Assembly: GCA_964016885.1 (NCBI GenBank) | Contig: OZ024743.1 | Coordinates: 185,814,001-185,878,000 of the forward strand | Direction of reading: 5' to 3' | DNA from: Eledone cirrhosa | Lineage: Eukaryota | Length of the DNA: 64,000 nucleotides | Notes under the pieces: model-generated | Database searches by the model: none | What the model saw: the letters and a program-made list of their open reading frames with translations, nothing else | What the model was told of the DNA's origin: nothing | Shown here: one piece after another, positions 3,349 to 63,935 of the stretch | How the letters are laid out: each line of letters opens with the position of its first letter | How positions within the stretch are numbered: the stretch's first letter is position 1 | Position numbers and translations under genes: made by a program

Positions 3349-3986
3349 TAAGGATCAAGTGGTGGTATTAAATACCACTATGTGTACCCAAGGGCCAGGT
3401 AGTGGTATTAAACTGGGTAATGTGTACCCAAAGGTCAGGTAGTGGTATTAAACTGAGCAATGTATACCCAAAGGCCAGGTAGTGGTATTAAACTGGGCAA
3501 TGTGTACCCAAGGCTCAAGTGGTGGTATTAAACTGGGCAATGTGTACCCAAGGGTCAAGTGATGGTATTAAACTGGGCAATGTATACCCAAGAATCAAGT
3601 GGTGGTATTAAACTGGGCAATGTGTACCCAAAGGTCAGGTAGTTGTATTAAACTGAGCAATATATACCCAAAGGCCAGGTAGTGGTATTAAACTGGGCAA
3701 TGTGTACCCAAAGGCCAAGTAGTGGTATTAAACTGAGCAATGTATACCCAAGGATCAAGTGGTGGTATTAAACTGGGCAATGTATACCCAAAGGCCAGGT
3801 AGTGGTATTAAACTGGGCAAGGTGTACCCAAGGGTGAAGTGGTGGTATTAAACTGGGCAATGTGTACCCAAAGGCCAGGTAGTGGTATTAAACTGGGCAA
3901 TGTATACCCAAAGGCCAGGTAGTGATATTAAACTGGGCAATGTGTACCCAAGGGCCAGGTGGTGGTATTAAACTGGGCAATGTGTA
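3349..3986. repeat. 40-bp minisatellite (GGTAGTGGTATTAAACTGGGCAATGTGTACCCAAAGGCCA), about 16 copies
   Basis: Visible 40-bp periodicity with point variants and no unique spacers. Confidence 0.97.
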
Positions 3987-22578: not shown

Positions 22579-22947
22579 CTAAAATAGTCAAGAAATATAA
22601 AAATAATGTACAACTTCAGAAGAGAGATTTGAAAATAAACAAAATAGACTTACAGAGTTTATATTCTGGTTTAAAACAATGTATATTAACAAGTAAATAA
22701 ACTAAATTGACAAACTGGTGCTTAGTATCCAGAACAAATGAAAAGAGATATATTTCACTCAATTCTTTAAACCCACATATCACTATAGTTAGAAGAATTT
22801 AGGCTAACAACTGTTTGAACAAATTTGAAATACTAGATCTGTATCTAGAACAAATGTATATGAAGGGCAACACTGAAACAGATATTAAATGAACAAGAAT
22901 GTAATAAGTTAATTAAACATAAAAAAAAGTATTCAATATCAACATAC

Positions 22948-23174
22948 ATGGCACAGGTTTCTATGTGGTCAAGATAGTTAGCATATTGAAAAAATATAGA
23001 TTTGTTCAATTTATCAAGGTTTGCAGGGCTATTCTGGAAATACTGGAATATACTCTGAATTGTACAATTATTATTGGAAGGAGATAAAGGTGTAAAGCAG
23101 ATGTCATTTAGACCAATTGTCTTGTTGTTGTATTCTACAGTTAGTTCAGAAACAGAGTTTTGCAACTCAAGAAC
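22948..23174 (-). CDS. NPC1: NPC1 exon 5 (middle luminal domain, VLELQ...LNDICFTPL...CTIQSIFQYFQN...YLDHIETCA)
   Basis: Family motifs; TTTCAG acceptor, AT|GTATGT donor; 227 nt. Confidence 0.95.
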
Positions 23175-23344
23175 CTGAAAAGACAAAAGAAAAACTTTAT
23201 AGATTGAAACATCCTATTCTATTGAAATTACTAATACATGTTTATTATGTGTTGGAGAGCTGTGTTTTAAATACAGATAGTCTTCTGGATTAATCAAATA
23301 ATTTGGAAGATGTGATTTCTCACATCCTTTCATTGAACTGGTTT

Positions 23345-24365
23345 TATCTTATGGAATAAGTAAGAAGAGTAGAAATTCCATCCTATGTCCCAAATGCAAA
23401 CTATGGGTACACAAAAGATGTAGTAGGATTTCAAGTAGGCTAGCAAAGAAAGCAGGTTTTATATGTAGTCGTTGAACAGGTGCAGTATGTAGGAGCCCAG
23501 AGGACACTAGCTCCTCTAAATGCCCAGAGGGCTTGGTAGAAGTAATTGATAGATTCTGTTACCTGGGCATCCAAATTACCAATAGAGGTGGGTGTTACGA
23601 AAGTACTGTAGCTAGAGTGAGAACAAGATAAAGAAAGTTCAGGAAGCTACTATAGCTGCTCACTATAAAAAAAATTTTCCTCCAAAATGAAGGGCAGATT
23701 GTATGATGCAAGGGCAGATTATATGTTGCGTGGTAGTGAGACCTGGGTATTGTGTGCAGAGGACCTGCGAAGGTTGGAAAGAAATGAAGCTGGCATGCTT
23801 TGAATAGCAAAGCATAAATGAACTGAGAGAGAAACTAGGCATAAGAGGAATCAGATGCAATGTGCAGGAGAGGAGATTGCGCTGGTATGGACATGTAATG
23901 CGTATGAAAAATGACAGTTGTATAAAAAGGTGCAGGGTGCTCAAAGTTGATGGAAGCTATAATGTAGGAAGACTTGGGATGAGGTGATAAAAGCTGACCT
24001 TAGACAATTGCACTTCTTCAAGGTGATGACACAGGAATGAAATCTCTGGTGTTATGCAGTAATATAGAAGAGCTGCCTTCCCAAGTGCAACGGTTGTAGC
24101 ATACATCATGTTTGCACTAACCCCTGTCTCCAGATAAGTACCCCACTCCACACTGTAAAGTGGTTGTTTTGGTGGCATGAGAAACATTGCCCAGTCCACA
24201 CTGTAAATGTGGTTGGTGTTAGGAAGGGCATCCAGCTGTAGAAACAAAGCTAGAAACACTTCTGTATAAACAAGACAGTCATCTGATCTGACTTGTCTAA
24301 CAGGGAGACAACTCGTCTAACCCATGCTAGTGTGGAAAATGGACGTTAAACAGTAATGATGATGA
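23345..24365 (+). mobile_element. Degraded RTE LINE 3' end with GAT tail
   Basis: Similar to the RTE C-terminus (GAGATTGCGCTGGTATGGACATGTAATGCG) and the shared 3' tail. Confidence 0.82.
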
Positions 24366-25210
24366 GTCCTTTCTTGTACTGCTATCAGATCTAACATAGC
24401 TGCTTAATCTACCTCTCATTAATTTGCACTTATATCTAAATTAATTTTATTATGATGTCAAAAATTGATAAAATTCCAAAAGATTATATGGAAATAATTT
24501 TATTATGATGTCAAAAATTGATAAAATTCCAAAAGATTATATGAAAATATAAAATAAAAATGCCTAGTATAATTGGATCATCACTATCGATAATTTCAAG
24601 AGCAAGTTAGACTGGTGGAGCTCATCCTTCTCTAGACTATCAACTATGACCAGAAATTACAGTAAACGTTACATGAAATAATTCACTGGAAACGAGCTGC
24701 ATTACAAATTTGGTATCATGAGAGCTTACTAGCATTGCATGGCTCTTATACATGGTAGGTATATGCTGTATATACACAACACTTGGTATCATGAGAGCTG
24801 ACTAATACTACATGGCTCACATGTATGGCAGATGAATGCTGTATATATAAACTTATGCTGGATAAGGATTCAAAATTTACTTAAGTGTGAAGATTATTAA
24901 GTATTGATGAAAAGCTAATATCCCTAGAATCATCATTAATGTTTAGCATCTGTTTTCCCTGCTAGCAAAGGCTGGACATTTTGTCATAGACTGGTCAGTA
25001 GTCAAGCAAAGTCACTGACCTCCAGGGGGCACTAAGAGCTCTACTGAGTGCATTTTATCATGCCACCAACACTAGGGAAGTTATATTCTTGACACAGCTG
25101 AAGAGTGAACTTGGCCCTTTGTTTGGCAGAATTAATCATGGAAAATATACAGGTTTCTAGCCAATTGTGTTTATAAGAAAACAATGAATAAAAGAACCAA
25201 ACTCTCTAAC

Positions 25211-25343
25211 CTGGTGCATGAAATCTTTATCAAAAATTGGACTGTAATAAACATGGTCAGCTGATGGTGGTGGCAGGGGATGTTTGACGAGAGAGTTGTT
25301 GCCATTCCTTGTAATAATTATCATTTCACTACGATAAAAAGGT
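25211..25343 (-). CDS. NPC1: NPC1 exon 4 (PFYRSEMIIIT...FDKDFMHQ)
   Basis: Completes the FGPFYR motif across the junction; AAG acceptor, CAG|GTTAGA donor; 133 nt. Confidence 0.93.
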
Positions 25344-25954
25344 CTTTAAAAGAAAAAAAACAAAACAAATTAAGATGCTCTGATACAATTCTAAATCATA
25401 ATGATAATTATTAAAAATCCTTGTATTACCATTCTGAGACTAGTGTGAATGCTTTTTAATGCTACTGTGCTGTCAGATTGAATAGCACTGCAGTACACCA
25501 ACTTTTCTTGCATCTCCATATATTGTTTGTGACAGGAAAGAACTCCATATATTTAGATTATTTTAAATGTGAATCTAAAGTTATAGTTAGATATAGTGTA
25601 AACATAAAATGAAGTATAACAAACAGAAATTGTAGAATCTACAGAGATGTAGTTATATAAGTATCACACACACATACACACGATATATGATGGTTAGATT
25701 GCAGTAAATATTGGCATATACTGTATTCAGCACTCAATGTAATGTTGTGATTCAAAGGTGTAGTAGTGCCAGCTGAAGAGATGGATAATAGCATATACTT
25801 GGTATCAATAGAAATTGCTCAATATATGTATAAACATTTTGAGTTGAGCTCTCTCTCCATTTATGCAAATCTGAAGATGCCATAATCTCAGAGCCGAACC
25901 CAATCATTACATTATAATTTATGTCATTATGAATAATTTTGAGGTAATTATGTG

Positions 25955-26075
25955 AAGGCGTGTGGCTGTGGTTAGAGAGTTGAATTCACAATCACAAGGT
26001 TGAGAGTTCAATTCCCAGACAGGGTGAAGCATTATGTCCTGAAACAAGACACTTTATTTCATGGTGCTCTTTCTG
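25955..26075 (+). mobile_element. Second tRNA-headed SINE family (inverted copy at about 31140-31275)
   Basis: TGGCTGTGGTTAG A-box-like, GAGTTCAATTCC B-box, CAAGACACTTTATTTCA body. Confidence 0.68.
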
Positions 26076-26451
26076 CCAAGAGTTGCAACCAGTTGATAGT
26101 ATCAACAATTGAAAAAAACCAATAAGAACATTGTTTCCTTGGTCCAATTTGACAAGTTTCACCCCACTCAGTAAGAAAATGAAGTCTGGGCTATTGTCGA
26201 TCGTAAAAAAAAATGTGAGTGAAACATGTAATAAGAATAAACATTTCATAAATTGACATTTTCTTCTCCATTATATATATATGAGATAGAAAGATGGGGA
26301 CTGACAGATAGACAATGATATTGGCAGAGAAGAGTTAAAAACATTTTACCCCCACCCCTTGTCTTACATTTGTGTTCCATGGATTCTAAATAAAAATAAA
26401 AAAAATATGTTTTTAACAGTCTAGTATTTGTGTGTGACAGATAAAGAAACT

Positions 26452-26625
26452 TCATTGGCAGTATCGGTAGAGGGTCGGACACCATGCTTTGATGCATAGT
26501 TACAGCCCTTGCCATTCTGAGTTCAAATCCCGCCGAGGTTAACTTTACCTTTCATCCTTAGGGGGTCGATAAAATAAAGTACCAGTAATGTACTGGGTAT
26601 TGCTGGCCTTGTGCCAAAAGTAGAA
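26452..26625 (+). mobile_element. tRNA-derived SINE (related copies at about 1366-1560, 1575-1760, 28090-28270, 36380-36550, 38975-39110, 39910-40055, 60835-61025)
   Basis: A-box-like TGGCAGTATCGG, B-box GAGTTCAAATCC, shared body CTTTCATCCT...GTCGATAAAATAAAGTACCAGT...GGCCTTGTGCC. Confidence 0.8.
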
Positions 26626-26704
26626 ACAATTATCTTTATTATCCTTAACTTTGATGAGAATTGTGGAGGTGTTAATAGCAAGGACAGATAAAGTGATAAC
26701 TTAC

Positions 26705-27704
26705 CCAAAGTTTGTATCAAAGTAATTTTTTTCTAGTCGAGCTTCGCTGTCTGGAGCTGACCACAGCAACACAGGATCAGTAATAACCTTGAATCTTATA
26801 ATCCCACATGAAAGGATGGTAGAAACAACCAAACTAATTAGAATAACCCTCAGTGGGAATTTAGCACATAAATAGCCCCATTTATAAAACTTTTCATCTA
26901 AAAAATGTATAAATTTATCACCTAAAGCAGATATTTTATTGTTAGATACTTGAATTGTTTCTCCTAAGACTGGATAATTAGATAACTGAGAAGATTCTTT
27001 CCCATCTGCTACTCCCAAACTATTTTGCCACACAATATTTTCCCAAATAACATAAGACATGAATAAAATAAAGAACCCTAGAAATATAGAGCCCCATATA
27101 AAGTCATAAGCATTAATATAGAGAATCTCCCAAGTTTTGGAGCCCTTGGGTATTGGTGGAAAGGGGGGACATGAACCGCTGCAGTCCTGACAGCTACAAG
27201 CCGGTGTATCATTATTTGTAGGTGAACTACAAGGAATTAATGTGTAATTCATGGGAATTAGAGTTTTATTAGGAGATACTTTCCAAGGAGATTTTGTGAT
27301 GTTGAAGTCAATAGATATAGGAGTGTATCCATTGTTAGTGCCACCCATAAATTCCAACCACTTTTTAATGGTGCAATGTTTACCAGCATTCCCACACATC
27401 ACTGTAAGGGCTTTCATATTAGCGCTCGGCATTTGAACATTTTTGCAGGAATCAATTAGGCCATTGGCAAATACGGGATCAACAGCATACTTAATGCCAA
27501 AAACCGCAGGTCTGCCAGAGGTATTGCGTTTATCAGAAACAAAGACGTATTTACTTTGTTCAATATCACAAGTGAAAGCACAATAAAGGTTACGGAAGTT
27601 GTAATAACATGACGGGCAGCGTGCTAACATATCCTGTGCTTGGCCCAGACTTATTGCAAAATTGTGAATTGTCTTATTATTACAGCAAGTCTTTGTCTTA
27701 GGAC
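26705..27704 (-). CDS. NPC1: NPC1 exon 3 (1000 nt; rest of NTD, proline linker, TM1, TM2)
   Basis: RCPSCYYNF, CSCQDCSGSCPP, TDPVLLWSAPDSEARLEKNYFD; TTTCAG acceptor and GG|GTAAG donor; phase 1 to phase 2. Confidence 0.97.
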
Positions 27705-28779
27705 CTGAAAGAATAAAAAAAAATTGAAAACAAATAACATTAGGCATGGAAAATTTGTAAAAATGTCCCAATTGAAAATGTTCTAAATAGACATTGCTTA
27801 TCCTAATTATGCATAATATTAAATGAACAACATAAACAAGTGTTAGATGAGCTTAAATAAGTGAAAGGGTAATGCAATATCATCAATCAGACAGACTTTT
27901 TTGTTTTTATTTAGTTGGATGCTCTTCAAATGTATATTTGTAACAAAGATCTTGGTGTCATAAATTATTTCAACTGAAGGTTTTTCCATCTCATCCCAAA
28001 CTGACTAACTTCAGTTCCTTCAGATGTTTTTTTTCATCATTCTTTCAAACCAATTCAGACAATCCAAGCTATGTAAGATGTAATTCAATGTTTGGCAGAA
28101 TTGTTAGAGCATTAAACAAAATGCTTTGTGGTATTTAGTTTTGGCTTTTACACTCTGAGTTCAAGTCCTGCCAAGGTCAACTTTACCTTCATCCTACAAG
28201 AGTTGATAAAATGAAGTACCAGTTAAGTAATGGTGTTGATATAATTGCTGGCCTTGTGCCAATGTTAGAAATTATTATAATATTGTATAAAAAAAAGAAC
28301 CCATAAACATCTCTTGTAGAGAGCTCAGCTTATACAGTTGCTAAGACACACAAGCTATACTCTTACACCATCTACAGTCCTCTATACAGTTAGCTGATGT
28401 TTAATTCAAGTTTGTCAAAGCATAAAATGTATTAAGGATACAATCTCAGTCCAGTCTGTTTACTAGCTAAATATACAGAACTTATGATTATTAAGAGTAC
28501 TGTATCTTATCTGCAGTATGACATTAACTCACAACACTTAAGCCAATTGTCTAATAATTTAATCATTTCATTTTGATGGCAAGTGGAGAGACACTGTGCC
28601 GCTTTAGAATAAGTACACTATGTCACAAGAAGCAACTAAAAGAGTTAGTGTAAGGAGGGGCATCTGGCAGTAAAACATTGCCTCAAAAAGTTGTCTAGCC
28701 CATGCTAACATGGAAAAGTTGACAGGATGATGATGCTGATGATGATTCAGTTAATTGAGACTTTTTCCTCTTTTAAGCT

Positions 28780-29820
28780 CCTTTAAATGCCCAGAGGGCA
28801 CTGTATAAATAGTTGATAGTTTGTTACATGGGTGACCAAATTAGCAGTGGGGAAGGATGTCCCAAAAGCACAGTAGCCTGAGTGAGAACAGATTGGAGAA
28901 AGTTCAGGGAGTTACTACCACCACTAACTACAAAAGGTTTTTCTCTCAAAATGAAGGGCAGATTGTATGATGCATGTATATGAACAGCAATTTGCATGGT
29001 TGTAAGATCTGGGCACTGTGTGCAGAGGACCTGCAAAGTTTGGAAAGTAACGAAGCTTGCATGCTTTGATGGATATGTAATAGTAATATACATGAATGGC
29101 AAAGCATAAATGAAATGAGAGAGAAATTGTGCATAAGAGGGATTAGCTGAAGTGTGCATTGCTGTGAGACGTGATATGTATGAAGGATGACAGCTGTATA
29201 AAAAGGTGCAGAGTGCTCAAAGTTGATGGTTGCTATGGAGTAGGAAGACCTAGGAAGACTTAGATGAGGTGATAAAAGCTGACTTTGCAAATTGCACCTC
29301 ACAAAGGTGATGACACATGACCATGGTCTCTGGAATTATGCAGTAATAGAGAAGACCTGCCTTCTCATATGCATAGTCTGAGGCATACATCTAGTATGCG
29401 CTGCCTACCCCTCCATAATTCCTACCATACACCTCCTATGGCATAACAGCCCACCCATGACCTAACACACAATTTTTTACCCATGGCCCTAGATCTACCT
29501 CTCCAATCCCCATGCACCTCCCCAACCCAAGTTCGCAGTCCACACTATAAAAAGGTCATTTTGGTGCCACAACTATGAGCACCCAGTCTACACTGTAAAG
29601 TGATCATGTAGGTGTCACGACAAAAAGCACCCAGTACACACTGTAAATGTGGTTGGCATTAGGGAGGGCATCCAGCCATAGAAGCCAAGCAAAATCAGTT
29701 CTGTATGAGCAAAACACGGTCATCTGACCTGGCTTGTCTCAATGGGACAGCTTGTCTAACCCATGCAAACATGGAAAATGGACATTAAACAGTGATGATG
29801 ATGATGATGATGATGATGAT
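28780..29820 (+). mobile_element. Degraded RTE LINE 3' end with (GAT)n tail
   Basis: Same family motifs and tail. Confidence 0.82.
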
Positions 29821-30372
29821 ATACCTCAACATCTATCATAGCACAGTTTTCAGCCTTAGCAATTAATTTGTTTGCAAACTAATAGATGTTGAATCATATA
29901 TCAGTTGTAGTTTTTCTTCAGAAGATGTTTTGTTTTTGATGTCTAACAATAGAGACATTATTTGGTTTTTAATAATATTTTAAAAAAAAACAATAAAAAA
30001 TGATAACTAACATTTGTACTTATGAAAGAAGACAACAAGCAGATTTGATAAATATAAAATTTATAATAAAAATGTAATTAAACCCGTTAATGCAGTGGGT
30101 ATTGCTGGTTTTTCTCTGCAGCAACACCTTTGCTCTTTTGTCCATTGGGGGTAGCTGAGATTTACTAACTAGACTGGGGTGTAGGGTTTGCTGCTCCTTT
30201 CCCCTTTCTTTTCGTTATTACATTTTTTTTCTTTTTCTTTTATTGCAAACAATATATAATTTAACTGAAATTTGTTGAATAAAATATCTAGTGACCAACT
30301 GCATAATTATGTGAAAATTGCTGAAACAATTATGGTATTTTTCTAACAAACAAGAAATAATATGATATTTAC

Positions 30373-30529
30373 CTTTGTAAAGTGAGGGACAGTATAACTT
30401 TAAGAGTTTCAAGCCACTTGGAGCAGTGAGTGGCTTTGGTGGTCCATTATAGACACAATTAGTTGGCATGCCATTATATCCTGTACCACATACATCATAC
30501 CATATACAATGGCCTTCTTCACAGGACAC
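30373..30529 (-). CDS. NPC1: NPC1 exon 2 (start of N-terminal sterol-binding domain, VSCEEGHCIWYDVCG...LYCPSLYK)
   Basis: CIWY-x-x-C and NCxYxGPP motifs of the NPC1 NTD; AG acceptor, G|GTAAAT donor; 157 nt, ends in phase 1. Confidence 0.95.
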
Positions 30530-31999
30530 CTTTAATAAGAAAGAGTTAGTAAAAATGTAACAAAAACAAAAAGGATAACTAAAAACACTGCAATATATTT
30601 TTAACAGTTTGAAGTTAAGTTAAGTCATTTCAAACATTTCATCTTTATGAGCTGAAAAGAAAGTTATAGGATAGATAGTGTTGAGTGTGAAAGCTGGTGT
30701 GAATGACAAAGCTTTTCAATGTGTACTGAAGAGATTGTTGTATCACGCAGTAATAAATTAAAGGGCACAGCTGATTAGTGGAATGTCATGAGCTTAGAAG
30801 GTAAACTACAGTGAATTTATATATATAGTAATAATAATAAATTTGAAGACTTTAATCTGTTATTTTAATAAATATATATATATAATCATCATCATTGATT
30901 AACGTCTATCTTCCATGCTAGCATGGGTATATCATCATTATCATCATCATTTTATGTCCGCTTTTCCCTGCTTGCAAGGGTGAGACGGGAACTGATTCTG
31001 GCTTGATTTCTACAGCTGGATTCCCTTCCTAACACCAACCTCATTTACAGTGAGTGCTGGGTGCTTTTTTTTTTTTTCCATGGCGCCTACACGTCCACTT
31101 TACAGTGGAATGATAGGGACCCCAGTCCTATCATCTCATTTCTACAGCTGAGTAAACTGGAGCAATGTGAAATAAAGTGTCTTGCTCAAGAAAACAACAT
31201 CACCCCGTCTGAGAATTGAACTCACAACCTTTCGATTGCAAGGCCAATGCTCTAACCACTAAGCCATGTGCCTCCATATATATATAAGATTGGAGACCAT
31301 ATTCAGTTGAACCAGGTTTATTTAAAGCTCTGTTGTACATATTTCACTGACAACTATCAGTTAAGATAGCCTGAGGTCTTCAGACGGCTGTATATATATG
31401 ATGTGCGTGTGTATCCTGTTCAGAATAGGAACAGTATATCTTTATGTATAATAAGTGACTAAAAGGGTTAGTGCATCCGGATGTCAAACATTGTCTCAAA
31501 AAGTCCACTCCAACCAATGCCAGCATGGAAAAGTTGACGTAATTGTGTGTAGGTGCATGTGCAATATAAAATCTGATTTAAATAAGTTAAATTGCAGGAG
31601 GCTGTAGTAAAACAGGAAACTGATTACAACAATGTTAATATTTTCTAATTAAAAACAAAATTTCTTTTAATTATTTGAAGCCAGCTATACCAAATCAATG
31701 AGAAATATCTGGCTCTTATTCATAAGAGCAGAATCATAACCTTTTTAGAGAGTCGATGTGGTTACTTGACTTGCTAGAAATAGCAGCGTAATCACCTAAA
31801 AAAGGACAAATTGGATAATGTAGTGTGGTATATATAGTAAACCTTAAAGAGAATAGGATGTTCATGACTGAGTAAACTTGTTTATGCCTGAGCTATCAGT
31901 ACTGACCTAGGGCTAAATAACTACTTTTGATCCACTTGAATTGAGAGCCATAAATAACAGAACAAAGTTGATATGGCTATGGTTTAGTTTGAATTCTTA

Positions 32000-36617: not shown

Positions 36618-38790
36618 ATCATCATCATCATCATCATCGTTTAACGTCCGTGTTCCATGCTTGCATGGGTTTGGACGGGAGTTTTCCCACTTGAGGCAAG
36701 AGTGGTTGTCTTGCTCGCATAGGACTGTCTGGCGGGTTTTCTACAGTTGGATGCCCTTCCTAACACCAACCACATTTACAGTGTGGGGCTGGGAGGTTTT
36801 TACCGTGTTGCCTACACGGCCACATTACAGCGTGGACTGTCTGGCAGGTTTTCTACAGCTGGATGCCCTTCCTAACACCAACTACATTTACAGTGTGGGA
36901 CTGGGACGTTTTTACCGTGTTGCCTATACGGTCACATTACAGCGTGGACTGTGTTTTTTTGTCGTGACACCTACACGATCTCATTTGTTTCGGCCTGGAT
37001 TTTGTGGCACCAACATAACTTTACATTGAAAGGGGTGGTGTGGATGGGGTGGGGGTGTATTTTGTTAGAGATGCCTACTGACTGTAGTAGGTTTTACTTT
37101 GTATTTAGGTAACGCGGGTCTTCTCTATTACTGAGTACCGCCAAAGCTCTCGGTCCAGTGACATTGTCTTGGAGAGGTGTAAGTGTGTGAGGTCGGAATT
37201 TATCAGCTCGTCCCAGGTTTTTCTGGGTCTGCCTACTCCGTGGCTACCGTCTATCTTTATTGCCCTGCACTTTGTTATACAGCTGTCGTCTTTCATGCGC
37301 ATCACATGACCATACCAACGTAGCCTTCTCTCGAGTAAACAACATCTGATCCCTCTTATTTCTAATTTTTTCCTTAGTTCGTTTATGCTTTGCCGTTCGC
37401 GTATATTACTATTACACATCCAGCGGAGCATGCAAGCTTCGTTCCTCTCTAGTCTGCGTATATCCTCTGCACACAATGCCCAGGTCTCACTGCCATGCAA
37501 CATTGCTGTTCGTATGCAGGCATCATACAACCTGCCTTTCACTTTTAGGGAGAACCCTTTAGCGGCTAATAGTGGTATAAGCTCTCTGAACTTTTTCCAT
37601 CCAGTTCTGACTCTAGCTACTGTACTTTCGGAGCACCCTCCCCCACTGCTGATTTTGTCACCCAGGTAACGGAAGCTGTCCACTATTTCTATAGAACCCT
37701 CTGCGCAGTTGAAAGAGCTAGTATTTTGTGGGCACTTGCTGCTACTTATTGCACCAGAGCACCGGCCACATGTAAAATCTATGTTCTTAGTTAGCTTCCC
37801 TGTGATCCCACTACATCTTTTATGCACCCATACTTTGCATTTGGGACATAAAATGGAGTTTCTACCTACGCCTTTCCTGCACACTGAGCATGGCCATTTC
37901 CCGGAAGGGACCGGCGCCTTATTTTCTTTCCTACAAACTAGAACTTTAGTCTTAGCCATGTTAATTTTAAGGCCTTTTGATTCTAGGCCGTGCTTCCATG
38001 TTTGGAATTTCTTCTCTAGCTTGGCCATTGATTCAGCTATGAGCGTTAGGTCATCTGCGTATAGGAGTTCCCATGGGCAGCCGGTCTTGAACTCCTCTGT
38101 TATAGCCTGAAGAGCAATAATGAATAGTAGGGGCTAAGAACAGAGCCCTGATGGACACCAACTTTTACGCTAAAATCTTCACTATATTCGTTGTTAATTC
38201 TAACCTTGCTCACTGTTTCTTTATACATGGCTTGTATAGCTCTCACAAGCCATTCGTCAACACCTAGTTTTCTAAGAGCCCACCAGATAATGGAACAGGG
38301 GACTCTGTCGAAGGCTTTCTCCAAGTCGACAAAGGCTAAGTATAGGGGTTTACCTTTAGCTAGGTACTTCTCCTGGAGTTGTCGTACAATGAAAAGAGCG
38401 TCTGTGGTACTTTTGCCTGACACAAACCCAAACTGCATTTCATCTAGATCAATTCTCTCTCTGATTAGTTGCACTATTACTTTTTCCGTGACCTTCATGA
38501 CCTGGTCGATTAATTTAATCCCTCTATAAGTTACTCCTATCTAGGGCGTCTCCTTTACCCTTGTAACAGTTAATGATGATGCTGCTACGCCAGTCCTTCG
38601 GAACAACCCCATTCTGTATGACTTGGTTTACTATCCGGGTGACCATGGTGTGTCCAACCGTTCCAGAGGCCTTCAGCATCTCAGCGACTATTTCCGAAGG
38701 CCCAGCCGCCTTACCCGTCTTCATATCTTTGATTGCCTTATGGATGAATCTGTAACTCCTGGCGCAGTCAAAGGGGCGTTGTAGTAACAA
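36618..38790 (-). mobile_element. RTE-clade LINE, 5'-truncated, frameshifted RT with 3' UTR and (GAT)n tail
   Basis: ORFs 38524-38790, 38100-38498 (QFGF, FVDLEKAFDRVP, GVHQGSVLSP), YADDL near 38060, and 37105-38028 (FRYLG, RLRWYGHVMR, GRPRKTW). Confidence 0.95.
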
Positions 38791-50097: not shown

Positions 50098-50841
50098 CAT
50101 CATCATCATCATCATCATCGTTTAACGTCCGTGTTCCATGCTTGCATGGGTTTGGACGGGAGTTTTCCCACTTGAGGCAAGAGTGGTTGTCTTGCTCGCA
50201 TAGGACTGTCTGGCGGGTTTTCTACAGTTGGATGCCCTTCCTAACACCAACCACATTTACAGTGTGGGACTGGGAGGTTTTTACCGTGTTGCCTACACGG
50301 CCACATTACAGCGTGGACTGTGTGTTTTTTTGTCGTGACACCTACACGATCTCATTTGTTTCGGCCTGGATTTTGTGGCACCAACATAACTTTACATGGG
50401 GGTGGGGGGGTGTATTTAGTTAGAGATGCCTACTGACTGTAGTAGGTTTTACTTTGTATTTAGGTAACGCGGGTCTTCTCTGTTACTGAGTACCGCCAAA
50501 GGTCTCGGTCCAGTGACATTGTCTTGGAGAGGTGTAAGTGTGTGAGGTCGGAATTTATCAGCTCGTCCCAGGTTTTTCTGGGTCTGCCTACTCCGTGGCT
50601 ACCATCTATCTTTATTGCCCTGCACTTTGTTATACAGCTATCGACTTTCATGCGCATCACGTGACCATACCAACGTAGCCTTCTCTCGAGTAAACAACAT
50701 CTGATCCCTCTTATTTCTAATTTTTTCCTTAGTTCGTTTATGCTTTGCCGTTCGCGTATATTACTATTACACATCCAGCGGAGCATGCAAGCTTCGTTCC
50801 TCTCTAGTCTGCGTATATCCTCTGCACACAATGCCCAGGTC
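50098..50841 (-). mobile_element. Near-identical shorter copy of the RTE LINE at 36.6-37.5 kb
   Basis: Same C-terminal peptide (CAEDIRRLERNEA...EKTRVT) and the same 3' UTR/tail. Confidence 0.93.
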
Positions 50842-50859
50842 TATATATATATTATATAT

Positions 50860-50925
<66 letters not shown>

Positions 50926-51018
50926 ATAGAATACTATGAGCTTCTCGCTAGAACAATCTCTATACCTCTCATTTATATATATATATATAGTTATATTATA
51001 AACAACATAAGGCAATTA

Positions 51019-51078
51019 TTCCATTTACCAGTGGTTTCTTAAAAGCAAAAAATTTTGCTTTCAATCATCAGAATGAAA
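51019..51078 (-). ncRNA. Type I hammerhead ribozyme, family A copy 1 (GUA site)
   Basis: Minus strand: TTTCATT-CTGATGA-ttgaaagcaaaa..ttttgcttttaa-GAAA-CCACTGG-TA-AATGGAA; 7-bp stem I, about 11-bp stem II, short near-palindromic stem III. Confidence 0.8.
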
Positions 51079-51910
51079 AAATCCTGGTCTGTTTATTGAA
51101 TTTGGATTTTAAAAACAAAAATGCAATCTATATGAAAGTGATGCTGGAGAAAGAAGAAGGAAAGGAAAAATAAAATAAAAACACATGCAAACACACACCC
51201 ACACAAATGCATACATACACATATATATATATATATATACATACACTCATACATACACACACACATACACACATATATGTGTATATATATACACACACAC
51301 ATACACATACATATACACATACATACACACATAAATATCAACACATCCATACATACACATACATATATACAACCACACACACATATATACACACATATAT
51401 ACAGAAATATAAATATATATATATACATACACATACACATACATAGCCATACACACATACATATACATACATGCATACATACATACATACATACACACAA
51501 TCATACTTATATACACACGTACATACATACACATACATAAATGCATACATATGCATGTACAAAATTAGAAAAATATACACACACCTCTACATATACACAC
51601 GCGCAAATAAATATAAGAAAAAATATATATAAAAAATAAAATAATAAAGACTATTATACAGTTGACAGCGATACAGGCGACGAATAAATGAACAAACACG
51701 CGTGGTAAGCAATACACACAAATGCACGTACACATACATACGAAAAAGTAAATACATACACATACTCTCACACATAAATATACATATACAAATAGATAAA
51801 CACATACATACGCATACACAAACATATACATACATATACATATATATATATATATATATATAAATACAATATACATACATATACATATATATATATATAT
51901 ATATATAAAT

Positions 51911-51954
<44 letters not shown>

Positions 51955-52037
51955 ACACACACATACATACATAGCTATACAATTATACACATACAAAAAC
52001 GTACATATCACAAACACGCACAACCAAATACAAACAT

Positions 52038-52093
<56 letters not shown>

Positions 52094-52220
52094 AAAGTTA
52101 TATTTAAATTGTTGGGTTACAACTAGTAAATATTTATAACTGATATAAAAGCACTCGACAAGTATTTGGAATATATTTACGATATTAAATACATGGAAAC
52201 TATATTTATAAAACCATATC

Positions 52221-52286
52221 TATTTCATTATATATATTTCAGGGATATCATATTAACAATATGCTATGCCTTCCTCAGACAAAATA
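52221..52286 (-). ncRNA. Type I hammerhead ribozyme, family B (left arm of palindrome, mirror copy)
   Basis: Reverse complement of 52438-52503. Confidence 0.72.
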
Positions 52287-52437
52287 CAATATAAACAGTT
52301 TTATAGATAAATAGATTTGACATACCGTACAACATCGACTTGTATTTGAAAAGTTGAATTGGCAGTTCAACTTTTCAAATACAAGTCGATGTTGTACGGT
52401 ATGTCAAATCTATTTATCTATAAAACTGTTTATATTG

Positions 52438-52503
52438 TATTTTGTCTGAGGAAGGCATAGCATATTGTTAATATGATATCCCTGAAATATATATAATGAA
52501 ATA
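52438..52503 (+). ncRNA. Type I hammerhead ribozyme, family B (right arm of palindrome)
   Basis: TATTTTGT-CTGAGGA-aggcatagcatatt(gtt)aatatgatatccct-GAAA-TATATA-TA-ATGAAATA; 8-bp stem I with two G-U pairs, 12/14-paired stem II, palindromic stem III, AUA site. Confidence 0.72.
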
Positions 52504-52543
52504 GATATGGTTTTATAAATATAGTTTCCATTTATTTAATATC

Positions 52544-52629
<86 letters not shown>

Positions 52630-52725
52630 AAAACTCAATCTTAGATAATTCATATGAACCTTATATAACTCCAAAATATACATATACATATATATAGTAA
52701 TGTAATAAACAACATAAGGCAATTA

Positions 52726-52785
52726 TTCCATTCACCAGTGGTTTCTTAAAAGCAAAAAAATTTGCCTTCAATCATCAGAATGAAA
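52726..52785 (-). ncRNA. Type I hammerhead motif, family A copy 2 (GUG site, predicted inactive)
   Basis: Same fold as 51019-51078, but the cleavage triplet is GTG, which breaks the NUH rule. Confidence 0.7.
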
Positions 52786-52800
52786 AAAACCTGGTCTATC

Positions 52801-52858
<58 letters not shown>

Positions 52859-53254: not shown

Positions 53255-55762
53255 CAGGGGTACAACCGCAAACCTGTCAGAGACCGACCGGCATTTGAGG
53301 AGTTTGGCCCCCTCAGCCCGACGTGCAGCAGAACCTGGGTATATATTGATATATTGAAGTTAGATACGGAAAGTAAAAGAGTGTTGTCATATAGAAAGTG
53401 AAGAGAGACAGAGAGTAAAGCAGTTAAATTATAGAGAGGGTGAAAGAGGGAGAGAGAGACGACGCTAAGCTTTATAATATTTGAGAGTGAAGAGCGACAG
53501 AGAGAGTAAAGCAGTTAAATTATAGAGAGCGGGAATGATCTATTATAGAGAGAGGGAAGAGCGATGGAGAGAGTAAAGTTAAGAAACTATAGGGAAGTGT
53601 GTAGGATACATATATAATACACACGACACTCAGCTTTATAATATTATAGATGTATATAAAGTGTCTGTTTGACTGGAAACAGACACCTTCCTTTTCTATT
53701 CAGCCAAGCCCTCATTGATCTCATCAAATTCTATTTGATGATGAAGGTGAAGATGACAAGGGATATGCTACCACCCCACCCCCAGTAAATTTGTTGTTTG
53801 AAGGCAAGTGGCAGACATTATCTGAATGGGCCAAATCTCAGCTTGCACTTGTAGGCCATGCCAAGGAATACATTTAGGAGAGGGCACTTACCTTTCCTTA
53901 TTAGTCAGGGCAGTTATGCATTTGTGGAATTCCTTAGATGGCCATCCTCCTCTTGCAAATTTCTCATGGGTGAGTAATTGTATTTGTGTGTTGGGTCTTG
54001 TTTGGTTTAGGTTTATTGAGCACATTTATTATTATTTTGTTGTTGAGTGGTGTTGTGAGAGGAAAATGTTTATATATATCTATAAACTATGAGTACACAA
54101 GCGCTGAAGTGGGATTTCAGGTAGGCTAGCAAAGAATGCAGGTTTTATATGTGGTCGTTGCACATGTGCAGTAAATAGCCTTTGTATGGATATGTGATGG
54201 ACAAGGATCGTTGGATGAAGAAGTGCCAGGAAATGCCAGTGGAAGGAAGCTGAAGTAGAGGTAGACCAAGAAAGACCTGGGCAGAGGTTGTGAGAGCTGA
54301 CTTCAAATCACTGAGACCCACAGAGGAGATGACAAAGGATTACAATGAGTGGAGAGATGTCATGCTGAGAAGGACCCATCCAACCCTTGCAAATGTGGAA
54401 AAACGGACATAAAAAACGATGATGATGATGAGGATGATATATATGTGGACTGGCCGCTTTTATATTTTTAACATCTCTTTGAATTTTCCAAACAGCTTTT
54501 AATTTTTTTTTTCTTTTTTGTTTAGTTTTCTCTTTTTCTAGAGGCACTCCATTTTGATTTTGATTTCTACTTTAAACATTTGTCTAAGTTTATTAAAAAA
54601 ACTATGCCTCAAGGTATAAACAATTACCTTCTTTGGTGATTACATATTTGCTATCATTACAGATCCTGATACTACCCCACTCTTTCTTCTTCCTTAATTC
54701 TAATTCTAGTGTCCCTAAGCAGTGAAATATCTATTATTTCACATGTTCTTAATGTTAAGTTCAATAAAACAATATCAAGTCTTAACATGTTCTGTGACAT
54801 GTCACATTGGATAGTGAAAGTATCAAGAATTTTTATGTCCTTAAACTTGATTGTATAGGAAGGTTGATATTCACACTATTTTGCTAACCTTTTTAATTGT
54901 TTCTCATATAAATCAGAGCTTTCTTTGAACCCTGCTCTATTAACTTTGGTGTCTCTAGGTTCTGTTATGAGCCTATACTCCTCCTCCTCCTCCTCAAAGT
55001 TAACTGAAGTTGAACGTCAATCTTTAAAGTCTTTGGAATTTAAGAGAGATTTTCATTTATTCTTATACACAACATCTCTAATCAAGTGCTACTATTTACT
55101 TATACATGGAGTAGAATTTTATCTAAAATATCCCCAGATATTAAATACAAAAGCTTTGATGAATTTGACATCCAATGAGAACATTTTGTCAAGTATTAAA
55201 GATAGAATAAATGTCTTAACAAGATGAATCTTAGGAGTCACTTTATAAAATAGAATACAAATACACAGTTGTGCCTGCATCCAAGCTGGAGATGATAGAT
55301 GTTTGGATGGCTTACTGTTGGAAGTAGGTTATGTTACTACATTAGAATGAAGGACAGTACATTTGGTTCAAGTTATATCATAAAAAGCATTCATAGACAA
55401 GTGAATTGAACAATTTGATATAAGAGCATGTGGTAACTAACTATTTCAGATAACTAAGTATTGTAGAAAAGTAACAGAATTGTTTGGTTGTCAGAGTAGA
55501 AGTGTTTAAATGCAATCTAAGAGTTATTACTTAACTCGAAGTCAGCCCTGACAAAGTATACTTATGATAAAAGTAATTCCAACTATCTTTTGTTTTCAGG
55601 CATATCTAATAAATTATTCCACATTTTAATTTTTTTAAGGTCATATGGTGTAATTTGAGAAGTTTTGGGCTGCTATTTTTGCAGATTGAGTGACTATGTA
55701 AAGGTTACTCATTGATTTAATTTATAATGGGTTGATGAAAAGATGTGTATTTCTCTGGATTA

Positions 55763-56010
55763 TCATCAGGTCAGGTTTCTGCTTTCTACTGGTACCATGT
55801 AACCCAGTATAATCTACTTCATGATCATTATCAGGTCAGGCTACTGCCTATTACTGGTACCATGTAACCCAGTATAATCTACTTCATGATCATTATCAGG
55901 TCAGGCTACTGCCTATTACTGGTACCATGTAACCCAGTATAATCTACTTCATGATCATTATCAGGTCAGGCTACTGCCTATTACTGGTACCATGTAACCC
56001 AGTACAACCT
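55763..56010. repeat. 65-bp tandem repeat, about 3.7 copies
   Basis: ATGATCATTA recurs at 55821, 55886 and 55951. Confidence 0.92.
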
Positions 56011-56029
56011 GCTTCACAGTCAGGTCAGG

Positions 56030-57313: not shown

Positions 57314-57543
57314 TTAATATTCTGTTATTGTTTTTCTATAGAAACACTGCTTTCCAGTAGAAGTACAGTCAAGATTTAGGTATGGTCTTCCTACACTGTA
57401 AAGTTTACAAGTCCCATCACTCTGAAGAAGAATCAGCTGACAATCATGTGTTAGCAAACATCTAGATGCACATTCTACTTCTCCGCCATCTTGCTTTAAC
57501 AATAGCTTGTTTGCAACCATATGAGTTGTTTTAGTAAAAAGAT
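57314..57543 (-). CDS. Probable terminal coding exon of a small PAN/Apple-like cysteine protein (DLFTKTTHMVANKLL...ECASRCLLTHDCQLILLQSDGTCKLYS...DCTSTGKQCFYRKTITEY*)
   Basis: C-x3-C-x5-C...C-x-L-Y spacing typical of PAN/Apple modules; TTTCAG acceptor at 57544 (phase 1), TAA stop, AATAAA at 57250-57245. Upstream exon not found. Confidence 0.55.
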
Positions 57544-57552
57544 CTGAAATAT

Positions 57553-59016: not shown

Positions 59017-59095
59017 TATATAGTACATTATGAAGATAGAAGAAACATTAGATATAATTAGTAATAAGATATATCATACCTAGCTGGTTCTTCAG

Positions 59096-59189
59096 TCCCC
59101 GACTACGTAGTTTCGTGGCATATTATGCAAAAACACTAGATCATAGAGATATAGAGTTTTTGTGAGGTTCTGCCGACTTATCAAGGGGA
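59096..59189 (-). ncRNA. Type I hammerhead ribozyme, family C copy 1 (variant core UUGAUAA, long stem II, GUC site)
   Basis: Minus strand: TCCCC-TTGATAA-gt(c)ggca...caaaaac...gtttttg...tgccac-GAAA-CTACGTAG-TC-GGGGA. Confidence 0.75.
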
Positions 59190-59691
59190 TACCTCATTAA
59201 GGATTTCAAAACACGTCTGTGATGCGCGAGATAGAATCTTGAAAAGGCGGAGGGAGAGTCAATCACGTGATACAGCGGTCAAGAAACAGAGCTAAGCCCC
59301 TTATAACCCTGAAAAAAATACCACGGAGGCGGAGGGGGTATTCATATCAAAGCCGTAGAAGAGGTGGTTTGAGGAGGCGAGAAGTATGAGTAATGGTAGC
59401 TATCCAGCAGTCACTACACTTCAAAGGTTACTCGACCAAAGGGAGTTATAAACAATAAATAGAGAAACACACAGATACATGCGGACACATACATATACAT
59501 GAATATATCCACACATATCCCTGGGTTAGTGGTACCAACCTCAACCGATGTTGCTCTATGAATAACTGGGACAAAACAATCCGAATGGATTAGACTGATT
59601 CAGTATCAGAGCTATATAATACATTATGAAGAGAGAAGAAACATTAGATATAATTAGTAATAAGATATATCATACCTAGCTGGTTCTTCAG

Positions 59692-59785
59692 TCCCCGACT
59701 ACGTAGTTTCGTGGCATATTGTGCAAAAACACTACATCAAAGAGATATAGAGTTTTTGTGAGGTTCTGCCGACTTATCAAGGGGA
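59692..59785 (-). ncRNA. Type I hammerhead ribozyme, family C copy 2
   Basis: 596 bp from copy 1; identical core, stem I and stem III, with substitutions only in the distal stem II region. Confidence 0.75.
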
Positions 59786-61638
59786 TACCTCATTAAGGGT
59801 TTCAAAACACGTCTGTGATGCGTGAGATAGAATCTCGAAAAGGCGGAAGGAGAGTCAATCATGTGATACAGCGGTCAAGAAACAGAACTAAGCCCCTTAT
59901 AACTTTATAATGTACTTTATAGCTCTGATACTGAATCAATCTAATCCATTCGGGTAGTTCTGTCCCAGTTATTCATAGAGCAACATCGGTTGAGGTTGGT
60001 ACCACTAACACAGGGATATCTGTAGATATATTCATGTATATGTATGTGTCCGCATGTATCTGTGTGTTTCTCTATAAATATTGTTTATAACTCCCTTTGG
60101 TCGAGTAACCTTTGAAGTGTAGTGACTGCTGGATAGCTACCATTACTCATACTTCTCGCCTCCTCAAACCACCTCTTCTACGGCTTTGATATGAATACCC
60201 CCTCCGCCTCCGTGGTATTTTTTTCAGGGTTATAAGGGGCCTAGCTCTGTTTCTTGACCGATATTTCTACATATTGAGCAGGGCGGCCACTTCCCTGAGA
60301 GAATCAGAGTCCTATCTTCTTTCCTACTTACTAGCACTTTAGTTTTGGCTAAGTTTACTCTCAGACACTTTGATTCCAAATTCTTTTTCCATAATATATA
60401 AGCATGGAATATAGATGTTAAAAAGTAATGATGATGATAACGATGGTGGTGGTGGTGATGGTGGTGGTGGTGATGGTGGTGGTGATGGTGGTGGTGGTGA
60501 TGATGATAGTGGTGATAATGTGGTGAATAAATATATAATTGTTAAACAATTTATCAGTGAATGATTATTAAATAATTAAAACAGGAATAATGTTCTTAAG
60601 TTAATCACCATTAAGCAGAGGAAGAATAATATTGGAGAAATAGGGGATTTAGATTTTAATAGATAACAGTCAGATTAATAAATATATAAGAATATTCTTA
60701 TGTTAATAGTTATTGAACCATTAAATCAGGAAAAATTATTTCAAGTTTTAATGAATAGTTAAGAAATTATGAAACAATTAAATCAAAGATAACATTCTTA
60801 AGTTAATGCGTACTAAATAATGATTTCTGATTGAGGCACAAGGCCAACAATTTTGGTGGAGAGAGTTAATTATATTTACCCCAGTGTGTTACTGGTATTT
60901 TATTTTATCAACCTCATAAGGACGAAAGGCAAAGCTAACCTCAGCAGGATTTAAACTCAGAGTGTAAAGGACCCTAACTCTATGCCACAAAGCATAATGT
61001 CCAACGCTCTACTGATACTGGCAATCCATCGCACTCAAATGATTATTAAATAATAAAATCAGGTGGTTTGCCTAAAAAATTATTAGAGATAATCTCCAGT
61101 GCACTTTTTTATGGTGCGTGATTGAATGTGTAGGTCTTCTCTCCCCTCTTCTTTTCCTTCCTTATTATTACTCCCTTTTTTCTTCTTTTTTTTTAGTATT
61201 GCATAGGCTTGTTCATTATACAAATTGTACTGGCAATGTGATATTATATACATTTAATATCTCATTGTCAGTACAGTTTATAAAATGCACAAGTGTACAC
61301 TCTAATCGGTTGGGTTTGTATTTTAACAATACAGACATAATGAAATTATTGAGTGAATGAGAAAACGACTGAAGCTGTGTCCATTCTATTTGATATACTT
61401 TGTTTCATAATTATATATATATATCATTATCATCATCACCATTTTATGTCCATTTTTCCATGCTAGCCTGTGGGCTGGGTGCTTCTTGTCGTGAAACCTA
61501 CATGACCACTTTACAGTGTAGGCTGGGTGCTTTTTGTTGTGACACCTACACGACCACCTTACAGTGTAGGCTGGGGGCTTCTTGTTGTGACACCTACATG
61601 ACCACTTTACAATATGGTCTGAATATATTTTGTTTATA

Positions 61639-61704
<66 letters not shown>

Positions 61705-62354
61705 GTCCATATGATGAGTTAAATATAATTAGATACAACAGTGACATATACAAATACTTAAGTTTCATTGGGGTGTATAACCCAACAAAACTTAAGTACC
61801 TGTATATCTTACTGTTGTAACTAATTAAATGAAGCCATTAAAAAAAAAACCAACTGAAAACACTTTCTTGATTATATGAAATACAAAAAAGTTCCAAAGT
61901 TAATGAAGGAGGAAAAATTTTTACTTAGTATTTAAACATAGATTGTTTTATTTGAAAGTTAATGAATCAAAAGAATGTTTTAAAGTTTAGAAAAAACTAA
62001 AAGAGAAAGAAAAAGAGACCTGATTAGGGTCGATACATGAAAGGGATTAACTAATTTATTAGCACATATATGGAGATAAAGAGGAGCGGGGTCTTTTTGT
62101 GATAGATAGACACATTGATCTGTCAAGATGAATATTCTGTGAACTGGAGAAGCAATTTTGTTTTGTCACCATAATTGAATTAAAGATGAGTGTGATGCAA
62201 TGAATGGGTAAATTAGACAGATAGACAGGGAGATGAGTGCAGAGAGATAGGGATAATGGTTTGTCTATAGGGCAATAAATGAGAGGGACAGCACATTGGT
62301 TTAGGGAAAACTTGCATTAATTCTTCAAGAATCACTCTAGAAACCAGCTTCTCT

Positions 62355-62460: not shown

Positions 62461-63122
62461 GGAACCTAGTTAAAAACTAGGTTCTTGTGGTTTTCTACCA
62501 GTAAACAAATCTTTCAGGACTCCTCCCAACACTATAATGATACCCTGTCTAAAAGTAGATGGAAATAACTAATTGAAATTGCTGGAGGTTGTCGTCCCCG
62601 ATTTATGGAGGCAATTAAATAAGGGTAGTTAATGAAAGACCAACCATCTACTGTCAGTGTATACACTCCTAGTGGATTATGATTTATCTATTTGGTATCC
62701 TGTATGTCTGAGTATGTAAAAGTTAAAGCATGAGTTATAAGCCCTAATATTAGATCTAAATTTGACACCATTATCAATAGTTTAAAGTTAACAATTCTTA
62801 TGTATTTGGAATCTTTACACAGTTGTGAGGAAAGGATAGTGGAAATGTTTGTTGCTGGGATATCTCTAGTCTATGTTTGGTATATTTCCATTAAATAAAT
62901 GTTTTTTTAAATACTGCTGAATTGCACTCCACTGATTAATCAAATATGAATGAAACCAGCAGATAGGATATGCTTTTTAAGGCTAGTGGAATTCATTTAC
63001 ATTTACACCTTTAAACAAAGTATACTTTTTTGTCTGCTCAGCTGAGATGATTGTAAAATAATGGATTAATAACTACCTAACTTTGTCCTCTTATTCTTTC
63101 ATTGCTTAAAATTATTTCTCTA

Positions 63123-63233
<111 letters not shown>

Positions 63234-63334
63234 GTCTATCTATCTATCTATCTTCCTACCTATCTGCCTACCTACCTATCTGCCTACCAACCTATCTGCC
63301 TACACACCTACATACATACATACATTCACAAAAG

Positions 63335-63935
63335 AGATAGGGATGCACACAAAACACAGAGATGTGACAATAAATGCAGATTCTGCAGAATTAACATAGA
63401 AGATGCCACTCATGGCATAAGCAGCTGTCCAAAGATGACATCACGGTACTATCTACCTATGAGGCATGATGTAGTGGCCAAAGCACTATACAATATAGTC
63501 TGTAGAAAAGATAACCATGACAATAAACATGTTAAAAGTTACAGCAATGTAGAAGACATACACATACATAATATGAAAGAGTACTGGTGGAATGTTCCAA
63601 TAAAATGCAAGCATAACAAACCAGATATAATGATATGGGACAAGGAAAAGAAGGCATGCACAGTAGTGAAAGTCAGCTGCCCAGCAGATGTCAATATAAT
63701 ATTAAAGATTATCAAAAAGGAGAACATCTATACAGAACTAATAAGAAATCTCAGATACTCCACCCTGATTATGCCTTCAGATTATACCTGTGATCATTAG
63801 GGCTCTGGGATATGTTATTAACTGCTTCAGTCCAAATCTTGAGAAGCTGGGCTTCACAGAACCAGAAAGAACTCGACTAGTTACAAATACATTCTATTAA
63901 TGGAACAGTAAAAATATGTAAAACAATCCAAAATT
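63335..63935 (+). mobile_element. R4/Dong-like non-LTR retrotransposon 3' fragment (CCHC knuckle plus RLE), next to (TCTG)n/(TCTA)n
   Basis: CRFC-x8-H-x4-C, RHD, HNKPDI, K/E-VSCP. Confidence 0.8.

Follow-up and report, generated by a model that had tools for sequence, protein, structure and literature searches.

Paired type I hammerhead motifs in a (TA)n-rich interval of the Eledone cirrhosa genome resemble the ends of Penelope-like elements

The closest described counterparts of the hammerhead ribozymes reported here belong to Penelope-like elements (PLEs). In metazoan PLE hammerheads, according to PMC4209133, a long helix II goes with a palindromic helix III; most are found as lone truncated motifs and some as neighbouring pairs on opposite strands, and a G10.1-C11.1 pair is conserved together with an extra unpaired base after A9. 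The elements that carry them leave inverted 5'-truncated copies and one-sided tails and prefer (TA)n, as recorded in the available portions of PMC8557442 and PMC3846280; the role of the ribozyme in PLE transposition is still open in the former.

We analysed 64,000 nucleotides of contig OZ024743.1 from Eledone cirrhosa (the window; all coordinates count from its first base). Two segments, 50990-51090 (copy 1) and 52697-52797 (copy 2), are identical at 94 of 101 bases at an offset of 1707 bp, bearing out a preliminary description in which a segment of about 110 bp occurred twice with (TA)n beside each copy; the copy 1 unit extends past 110 bp. This pair, here called family A, has no third copy within the 64-kb window. 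Its seven differences fall in the tail (50992, 50995 and 50997), at H17 (51026), in loop II (51053), in stem II (51059) and at 51082. When both strands of the whole window were scanned with a hammerhead descriptor, four motifs were returned, two of them the family A copies and two in a palindrome; 100 block-wise dinucleotide shuffles gave a mean of 0.04 matches of any kind and none of comparable strength.

On the minus strand, both family A copies have a stem I of 7 bp, a stem II of 11 bp and a 9-nt palindromic stem III, and in both the type I core is complete (C3-U4-G5-A6-N7-G8-A9, G12-A13-A14, A15.1-U16.1, three stems and an open stem I). In copy 1, defined by scan and fold, stem I pairs 51078-51072 with 51025-51019, core C3-A9 occupies 51071-51065 with N7 at 51067, stem II pairs 51064-51054 with 51049-51039, G12-A14 lie at 51038-51036 and palindromic stem III at 51035-51027, followed by a tail of about 35 nt to 50990. 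Copy 2 is a ribozyme-only stub of the same fold, with C3 at 52778, a G-U wobble at 52766 and its 5' end at 52797; the stem II change from A-U to G-U preserves pairing, just as first described. The reported contrast between the triplets is likewise real: copy 1 has GUA (51026-51028, H17 at 51026), with a predicted cut between 51026 and 51025, and copy 2 has GUG (52733-52735, G17 at 52733), predicted not to cleave. Thus position 17 is other than G in copy 1 and the family majority, and is G in copy 2. The initial reading of GUG as a non-cleaving triplet agrees with G17 mutants that do not cleave, in the part of PMC4191386 at hand, and with our modelled folds, in which G17 pairs with C3.

The term canonical, first applied to these hammerheads, was apt for the core and not for stem II, which closes with U10.1-A11.1 instead of G10.1-C11.1 in both copies, nor did any Rfam hammerhead model match, whether at the gathering threshold or with E relaxed to 10. 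The Rfam test is insensitive, as a textbook-looking control motif, L094, was likewise missed. The L094 motif, an unrelated one and the only true-looking hammerhead among the metagenome loci, is of type I and lies at 1053-1013 on the minus strand of a metagenome contig that resembles bacterial or phage sequence. It has family A's 9-nt stem III, a GUC triplet and a G10.1-C11.1 pair; it lies just before a small gene, and its 3' half recurs near 140-120. A U10.1-A11.1 pair slows cleavage, and we found no papers on hammerheads closed in this way in the open-licence literature. The best pairing of family A needs no unpaired base between A9 and 10.1. Stem III had been given as ACCA-C-TGGT; the 9-nt palindrome stands, but a 1-nt loop III cannot close, and the monomer has 3 bp and a 3-nt loop, compared with 4+4 bp around a C.C mismatch in the dimer. 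Monomer folding barely beats shuffles (z = -1.5 and -2.0).

Part of the copy 1 stretch is contained in eight public runs with at least five organism labels. Sequences from four of eleven runs (X1, X5, X7 and X9) were mapped to 50923-51205 (283 bp) at 80% likeness, skipping 50923-51001; X6 and X8, which held a small share, and X2-X4, X10 and X11 were left out of this family mapping. The copy 1 stretch drew 1,654 X1 contigs, 6,530 of 12.47 million X9 reads, 36 X5 contigs and 6 X7 contigs, and related copies are present in organisms B and D. A ribozyme depth of about 1,660 in the 1,839 million letters of X9 amounts to roughly 0.9 copies/Mb, a rough figure because the library is a reduced-representation one; summed X1 contig depth is not a copy number. 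Family A is a very high-copy family. X9 read ends piled at 51014, 51099 and 51102 were considered as element boundaries and rejected, since they coincide with AATT sites (51014, 51051 and 51099); they are taken as restriction cuts of the library, which also bias the X9 variants at 51100-51102.

Variation within the family spares the ribozyme core. Among the X1 variants listed, 13 positions between 51002 and 51091 vary at 4% or more, comprising none of the 19 core and stem III positions and 13 of the 71 others (one-sided Fisher p = 0.035), with one A>C variant outside those listed that could concern three of the 19. The free position N7, at 46% in X1, is the sole catalytic-core base seen to vary among the variants listed, and loop II with its adjoining pair varies at 8-53%. 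Thus a family consensus lacking the core, named beforehand as the outcome that would count against the motif, was not what we found. Variants at 51012, 51021 and 51041 keep stem pairing and one at 51064 (C at 10.1, about 10% of depth) breaks it; those remaining at 4% or more are 51013 and two positions outside the fold. Pairing is kept in three of five common stem variants, no better than expected from a transition-only null (52%), and pairing conservation was accordingly rejected as support.

The GUA triplet of copy 1 is the family majority, each alternative staying below 4% in X1, the best-covered run. The two T>C changes tallied in X1 fall at 51108 and 51109, which leaves GUG and copy 2's stem II substitution each below 4% in that run; neither shows in X5 or X7, and in X9 three T>C changes fall outside the variants listed. 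The rarity of GUG points to private decay and not to a designed dead partner, and a stem II change this rare is not evidence of selection. GUG in copy 2 is therefore probably a rare, private change, and the contrast between an active and a dead copy most probably reflects a mutation that one stub happened to acquire. The suggestion that this contrast is meaningful did not hold up, as GUG is below 4% in X1 and any two copies form the same dimer. Copy 2 also carries two segregating family alleles, at 51053 (15%) and 51091 (26%), and the 93% likeness of the copies is that of the commonest family class, with 4,563 of 6,530 X9 reads 90-95% like copy 1.

Family depth runs on from the ribozyme to 51205, the end of the mapped stretch and about 110 bp past the segment first described, and loose ends of X1 and X9 contigs and reads enter CA-rich sequence, in which one 12-nt motif recurs at 51368. 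The family A unit must thus exceed 110 bp, taking in at least the beginning of the microsatellite-like interior. By read and contig depth, further family A sequence 5' of the ribozyme occupies 51091-51200 (minus strand) in copy 1 only. Beyond it lies a CA/TA-rich low-complexity tract (51201-52090), whose start is probably family A because other copies also enter CA-rich sequence. Just 5' of the copy 1 ribozyme, the minus strand reads AATAAA at 51097-51092, and a polypyrimidine tract ends in CAG at 51146-51144, three bases on which X1 has no variant. This site (AG at 51145-51144) resembles a splice acceptor and is a predicted one. PLEs are known for introns, and the intron of the Drosophila virilis PLE ends at the ribozyme, according to the accessible text of PMC4209133. 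On the ribozyme the summed depth of X1 is 290-720 thousand, dropping to 105-160 thousand over 51093-51152, and one contig from X7 ends at 51111 beside (TA)/(TG) repeats, both as 5' truncation predicts. An X5 contig from organism B has, at 51081, a junction resembling the 5' junction of copy 2. Together these observations indicate, from sequence, that short solo stubs are common.

The junctions lie in a concentration of (TA)n. Of the 25 (TA)6+ tracts in the window, twelve fall between 50800 and 52900, its most (TA)n-rich stretch of about 2 kb. Copy 1 meets (TA)8 at its 3' junction (50974-50989), a probable insertion target; copy 2 has (TA)31, (GT)12, about 55 nt and degenerate (TA)n at its 3' junction (52545-52696) and, at its 5' junction (52798-52844), 7 nt followed by (TA)20, the arrangement approached by the organism B contig. 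Both copy 2 and the palindrome thus have (TA)n on both sides. No non-microsatellite target duplication of 6-15 nt was found bracketing the pair, an absence that says little because such duplications are invisible inside (TA)n.

The palindrome (52092-52553) is built of two 191-nt arms, 52171-52361 and 52363-52553, placed head to head, with three mismatched positions (1.6% divergence) and a tail of about 80 nt on the left arm only. Each arm bears a type I hammerhead found by the descriptor scan, on the minus strand at 52222-52286 in the left arm (C3 at 52278, H17 at 52229) and as a mirror copy on the plus strand at 52438-52503 in the right arm (C3 at 52446, H17 at 52495). Stem I has 8 bp, stem II 12 bp with two mismatches and an A10.1-U11.1 closing pair, stem III is an 8-nt palindrome of A and U only, and the triplet is AUA. 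PMC1636495 has data on AUA and GUA triplets, with none on GUG, and reports AUA in natural hammerheads. These hammerheads, which the preliminary description had not noticed, are unrelated to family A, and we refer to them as family B. In the modelled fold of the whole span on the minus strand, the family B hairpin would sequester its left-arm ribozyme in read-through RNA. With hammerheads of its own and (TA)n on both sides, family B is its own hammerhead-bearing insertion; that the palindrome was cargo of a family A composite was not borne out. Rfam microRNA matches on the palindrome and the microsatellites all scored below the gathering threshold and were set aside. Neither family A nor family B sequence was found in metagenome and prokaryote genome collections, and scans of a second metagenome set and of prokaryote genomes for core plus stem III words gave 0 loci each.

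Other repeats were observed in the window. At 59024-60260, a (TA)n-flanked partial tandem of 596-bp period is accompanied by an inverted copy; on the minus strand each tandem unit has a stem II closed by G-C, followed up by GAAA, a 10-nt palindrome free of mismatches and GUC, but the 5' half of its core is degenerate, and the structure is probably a third PLE hammerhead family, decayed or variant. An imperfect 108-nt palindrome (81%) at 61723-61830, just right of (TA)29, has no hammerhead by descriptor. On the minus strand, 37105-38540 and 50203-50841 hold a frameshifted non-LTR retrotransposon whose reverse transcriptase is accompanied by a PHD-like finger (Pfam RVT_1 and PHD), and the element's 3' end recurs at 95-99% beside the family A pair, ending at (TA)n at 50842. 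A plus-strand reading frame at 63081-63800 with a CCHC motif and a PD-like motif, without a Pfam match, presumably recalls the restriction-like endonuclease of a non-LTR element. Satellite sequence is represented by an array of about 218 copies of a 40-bp unit at 11576-20096 and by shorter arrays with units of 40 and 65 bp at 3380-3986 and 55758-56016.

The window also carries an intron-split NPC1-like gene on the minus strand, with exons in 22845-30619 and Pfam NPC1_N matches at 26.7-27.9 and 30.2-30.6 kb. A candidate first exon encoding a signal peptide, at 48243-48181 (minus strand), is in phase with the next exon of this gene. If it is the first exon, the family A cluster would lie between genes, 2.8-4.6 kb upstream and on the same strand. 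The candidate sits in a CpG-richer stretch at 46-50 kb (o/e 0.84-1.09). A cysteine-rich terminal exon at 57314-57545 (minus strand), with (TA)n directly before its acceptor and no Pfam match, is one that we take to recall a PAN/apple domain.

The preliminary description had also proposed that the dead copy could still supply a catalytic half, and folding supports this on paper, with one live site predicted at copy 1. A swapped dimer of the two copies is modelled at -31.2 kcal/mol, as against -22.2 kcal/mol for two monomers, and is the cofold minimum. The minimum-energy fold of the 1,815-nt minus strand likewise joins the copy 2 catalytic strand to the copy 1 GUA strand, and it is more stable by 8.5 kcal/mol than a fold on which both monomer stems are imposed. 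In this whole-span dimer, A17 and C3 are free at copy 1, giving one open site, and the other site is locked by G17-C3; pair probabilities are 0.6-0.98, and 0.90-0.98 for the inter-copy stem III. Read-through RNA could thus, in principle, be cut once at copy 1. As G17 mutants do not cleave, the locus would yield at most one cut and no circle. Any two family A copies give the same dimer fold. Copy 2 would be transcribed first, and the initial 120 nt of the transcript, modelled by themselves, settle into a stable structure in which G17 pairs with C3 (-24 kcal/mol). In vitro, cleavage by PLE hammerhead dimers is poor (PMC4209133), and eight of nine frog dimer elements tested stayed uncleaved in the part of bioRxiv 10.64898/2026.07.22.740005 that is accessible.

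What the sequence shows is a family present in many copies, its core and GUA triplet conserved, whose members extend unequally far 5' and have (TA)n where they join their surroundings. Judged by anatomy only, the PLE traits of 5' truncation, partial tandems, an inverted copy, a one-sided tail and microsatellite targets are all represented. Both family A segments are very probably 3'-end pieces of one abundant retroposon with a PLE-type end, as far as their sequence tells. No PLE reverse transcriptase or GIY-YIG frame lies within the window, and neither copy is linked to one, so that PLE membership, which is likely, rests on anatomy. Given a PLE-type end, a layout of separate insertions is reasonably probable, and we lean, if by little, towards several independent insertions, each the stub of a Penelope-like element's end, that accumulated in a (TA)n hotspot. 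Palindromic stem III would let tandem or adjacent copies within the source element pair and cut the precursor after GUA; a PLE reverse transcriptase/endonuclease would copy the 3' end into (TA)n, in most cases terminating before the copy was complete. Copy 1 (the longer), copy 2 (the ribozyme-only stub) and the family B hairpin would have arrived separately, and copy 2 would later have acquired a neutral A17-to-G change. We propose that the pair has no evolved function.

A single insertion could instead have placed both copies, with copy 2 as the short upstream and copy 1 as the downstream pseudo-LTR of a non-coding PLE derivative, or with captured host DNA between them. Such a unit would measure about 1.25 kb without the later family B, and most of the sequence between the copies would be an intron of (TG)n/(TATG)n that stops at the acceptor-like site at 51145. 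We consider this possible but rather unlikely. Its layout, a short upstream and a long downstream copy on the same strand, is the partial tandem described for PLEs, and rotifer Penelope offers examples both of captured spacers of 0.9-1.5 kb and of sequences caught between solo pseudo-LTRs (PMC3846280). Moreover, at least part of the interior is element, since family A continues into CA-rich sequence; (TA)n brackets the whole unit; both copies share the copy-1 alleles at 51012, 51013, 51021, 51041, 51051/2, 51067 and 51089; and two same-strand copies within 1.7 kb are rarely expected at about 0.9 copies/Mb. The copies, however, diverge by 7%, as against 1.6% between the family B arms, two of copy 2's differences are alleles segregating in the family, each copy meets (TA)n at its 3' end with divergence beyond it, and the interior islands 51555-51780 and 52628-52685 have no second copy in the window. 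A more elaborate version appears quite improbable to us: family A would be a non-coding PLE of about 1.25 kb with a microsatellite-filled intron for a body, and its U10.1-A11.1 hammerhead would be a working variant. In that version an internal (TA)n would prime the element's insertion, the upstream GUG repeat would serve as an enzyme-only partner cutting the downstream repeat once, and the intervening hairpins would unite this natural asymmetric double hammerhead upstream of the NPC1-like gene. Separate stubs in a hotspot remain the reading we prefer.

That family A might be a non-LTR retrozyme or a SINE-like satellite propagated through small circular RNAs, with dispersed monomers here, is improbable. 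Type I hammerheads in a non-coding, high-copy family would suit such an element, and the accessible parts of bioRxiv 10.64898/2026.07.22.740005 and PMC7229834 describe family monomers as common and propose a derivation from PLE pseudo-LTRs. Yet the locus has no tandem array, the four runs contain no joint that would "go back" within the 283 bp and only two small opposite-strand joints, both in X9, helix II has 11 bp and not the canonical 4 bp, and with GUG only one end could be cut, precluding a circle from this locus. The 1,707-bp spacing, too, exceeds the consensus range of 51-972 bp given in the available text of that preprint. Very improbable is a selected one-cut device, in which the GUG copy would serve as enzyme only and cut the GUA copy in read-through RNA upstream of the NPC1-like gene: the modelled whole-span fold yields exactly this dimer, on the strand of the gene and 2.8-4.6 kb upstream of its candidate first exon, but any two family A copies would fold likewise, copy 2, made first, would lock itself as G17-C3, and the published PLE and frog dimers mentioned above were mostly poor cleavers or uncleaved. 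That the motifs match a short catalytic consensus by accident, in repeat DNA rich in A and T, is scarcely credible. The missing Rfam match and the weak monomer z-scores would speak for chance, and core plus stem III words alone do occur by chance, at 77 viral and 29 metagenome loci; stems of at least 5 bp on both arms, however, accompany them at only one of the 29 metagenome and none of the 77 viral loci, the shuffles gave no comparable match in 100, the core is invariant with N7 free across family A among the variants listed, and Rfam misses the textbook-looking L094 motif as well. As far as sequence allows, a chance match is refuted.

Whichever history of events applies to the pair, its kind is already known, the layout having been described for PLEs. 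The two copies had been offered as possible LTR-like ends of one composite; such ends are to be read as Penelope pseudo-LTRs in a described layout. No earlier description of family A was found in open-licence papers, a search that included no repeat library. What the locus adds to the PLE-linked list is two hammerhead families, perhaps with a decayed third, and in family A an unusual stem II closing pair that is maintained across a large family. Because only the swapped dimer joins the copy 2 catalytic strand to the copy 1 GUA, the locus is a handy natural reagent: if cleavage depended on the copy 2 core, long-range dimer catalysis would be directly demonstrated.

Set beside plant LTR retrozymes, the locus is alike in having two direct repeats with hammerheads around a non-coding interior. 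The accessible literature gives those elements type III hammerheads, long LTRs, PBS and PPT, and 4-bp target duplications, whereas the repeats here measure 100 bp and are of type I topology, which sets the pair apart from LTR retrozymes; a search for target duplications of 6-15 nt found none. Animal non-LTR retrozymes (PMC7229834; bioRxiv 10.64898/2026.07.22.740005, both in part) are closer, being non-coding, type I, high-copy and present as dispersed monomers, and a proposed pseudo-LTR origin is common to both; they differ from our locus, where no tandem array or circle junction is seen, the helices are non-canonical, the spacing is 1.7 kb and one site is uncleavable. PLE pseudo-LTR hammerheads (PMC4209133; dimers in PMC6765202, available portions) share with ours the type I topology, an intact core, an extended helix II, a helix III whose palindrome lends itself to dimers, and many dispersed truncated copies, and family B forms a close pair on opposite strands, as in PLEs. 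Family A departs from them in its U10.1-A11.1 pair in place of G-C, in having no unpaired base after A9, in a helix II of 11 bp against 6-8 and a helix I of 7 bp against 2-5, and in a helix III able to pair over 3 bp in the monomer. Compared with PLE insertions as described in the accessible parts of PMC3846280 and PMC8557442, our locus has no coding body and a longer tail, of about 80 bp in family B where 30-40 bp is described, but the head-to-head inverted copy of family B with its one-sided tail, and the direct copies of family A with their unequal 5' extent and (TA)n junctions, are alike.
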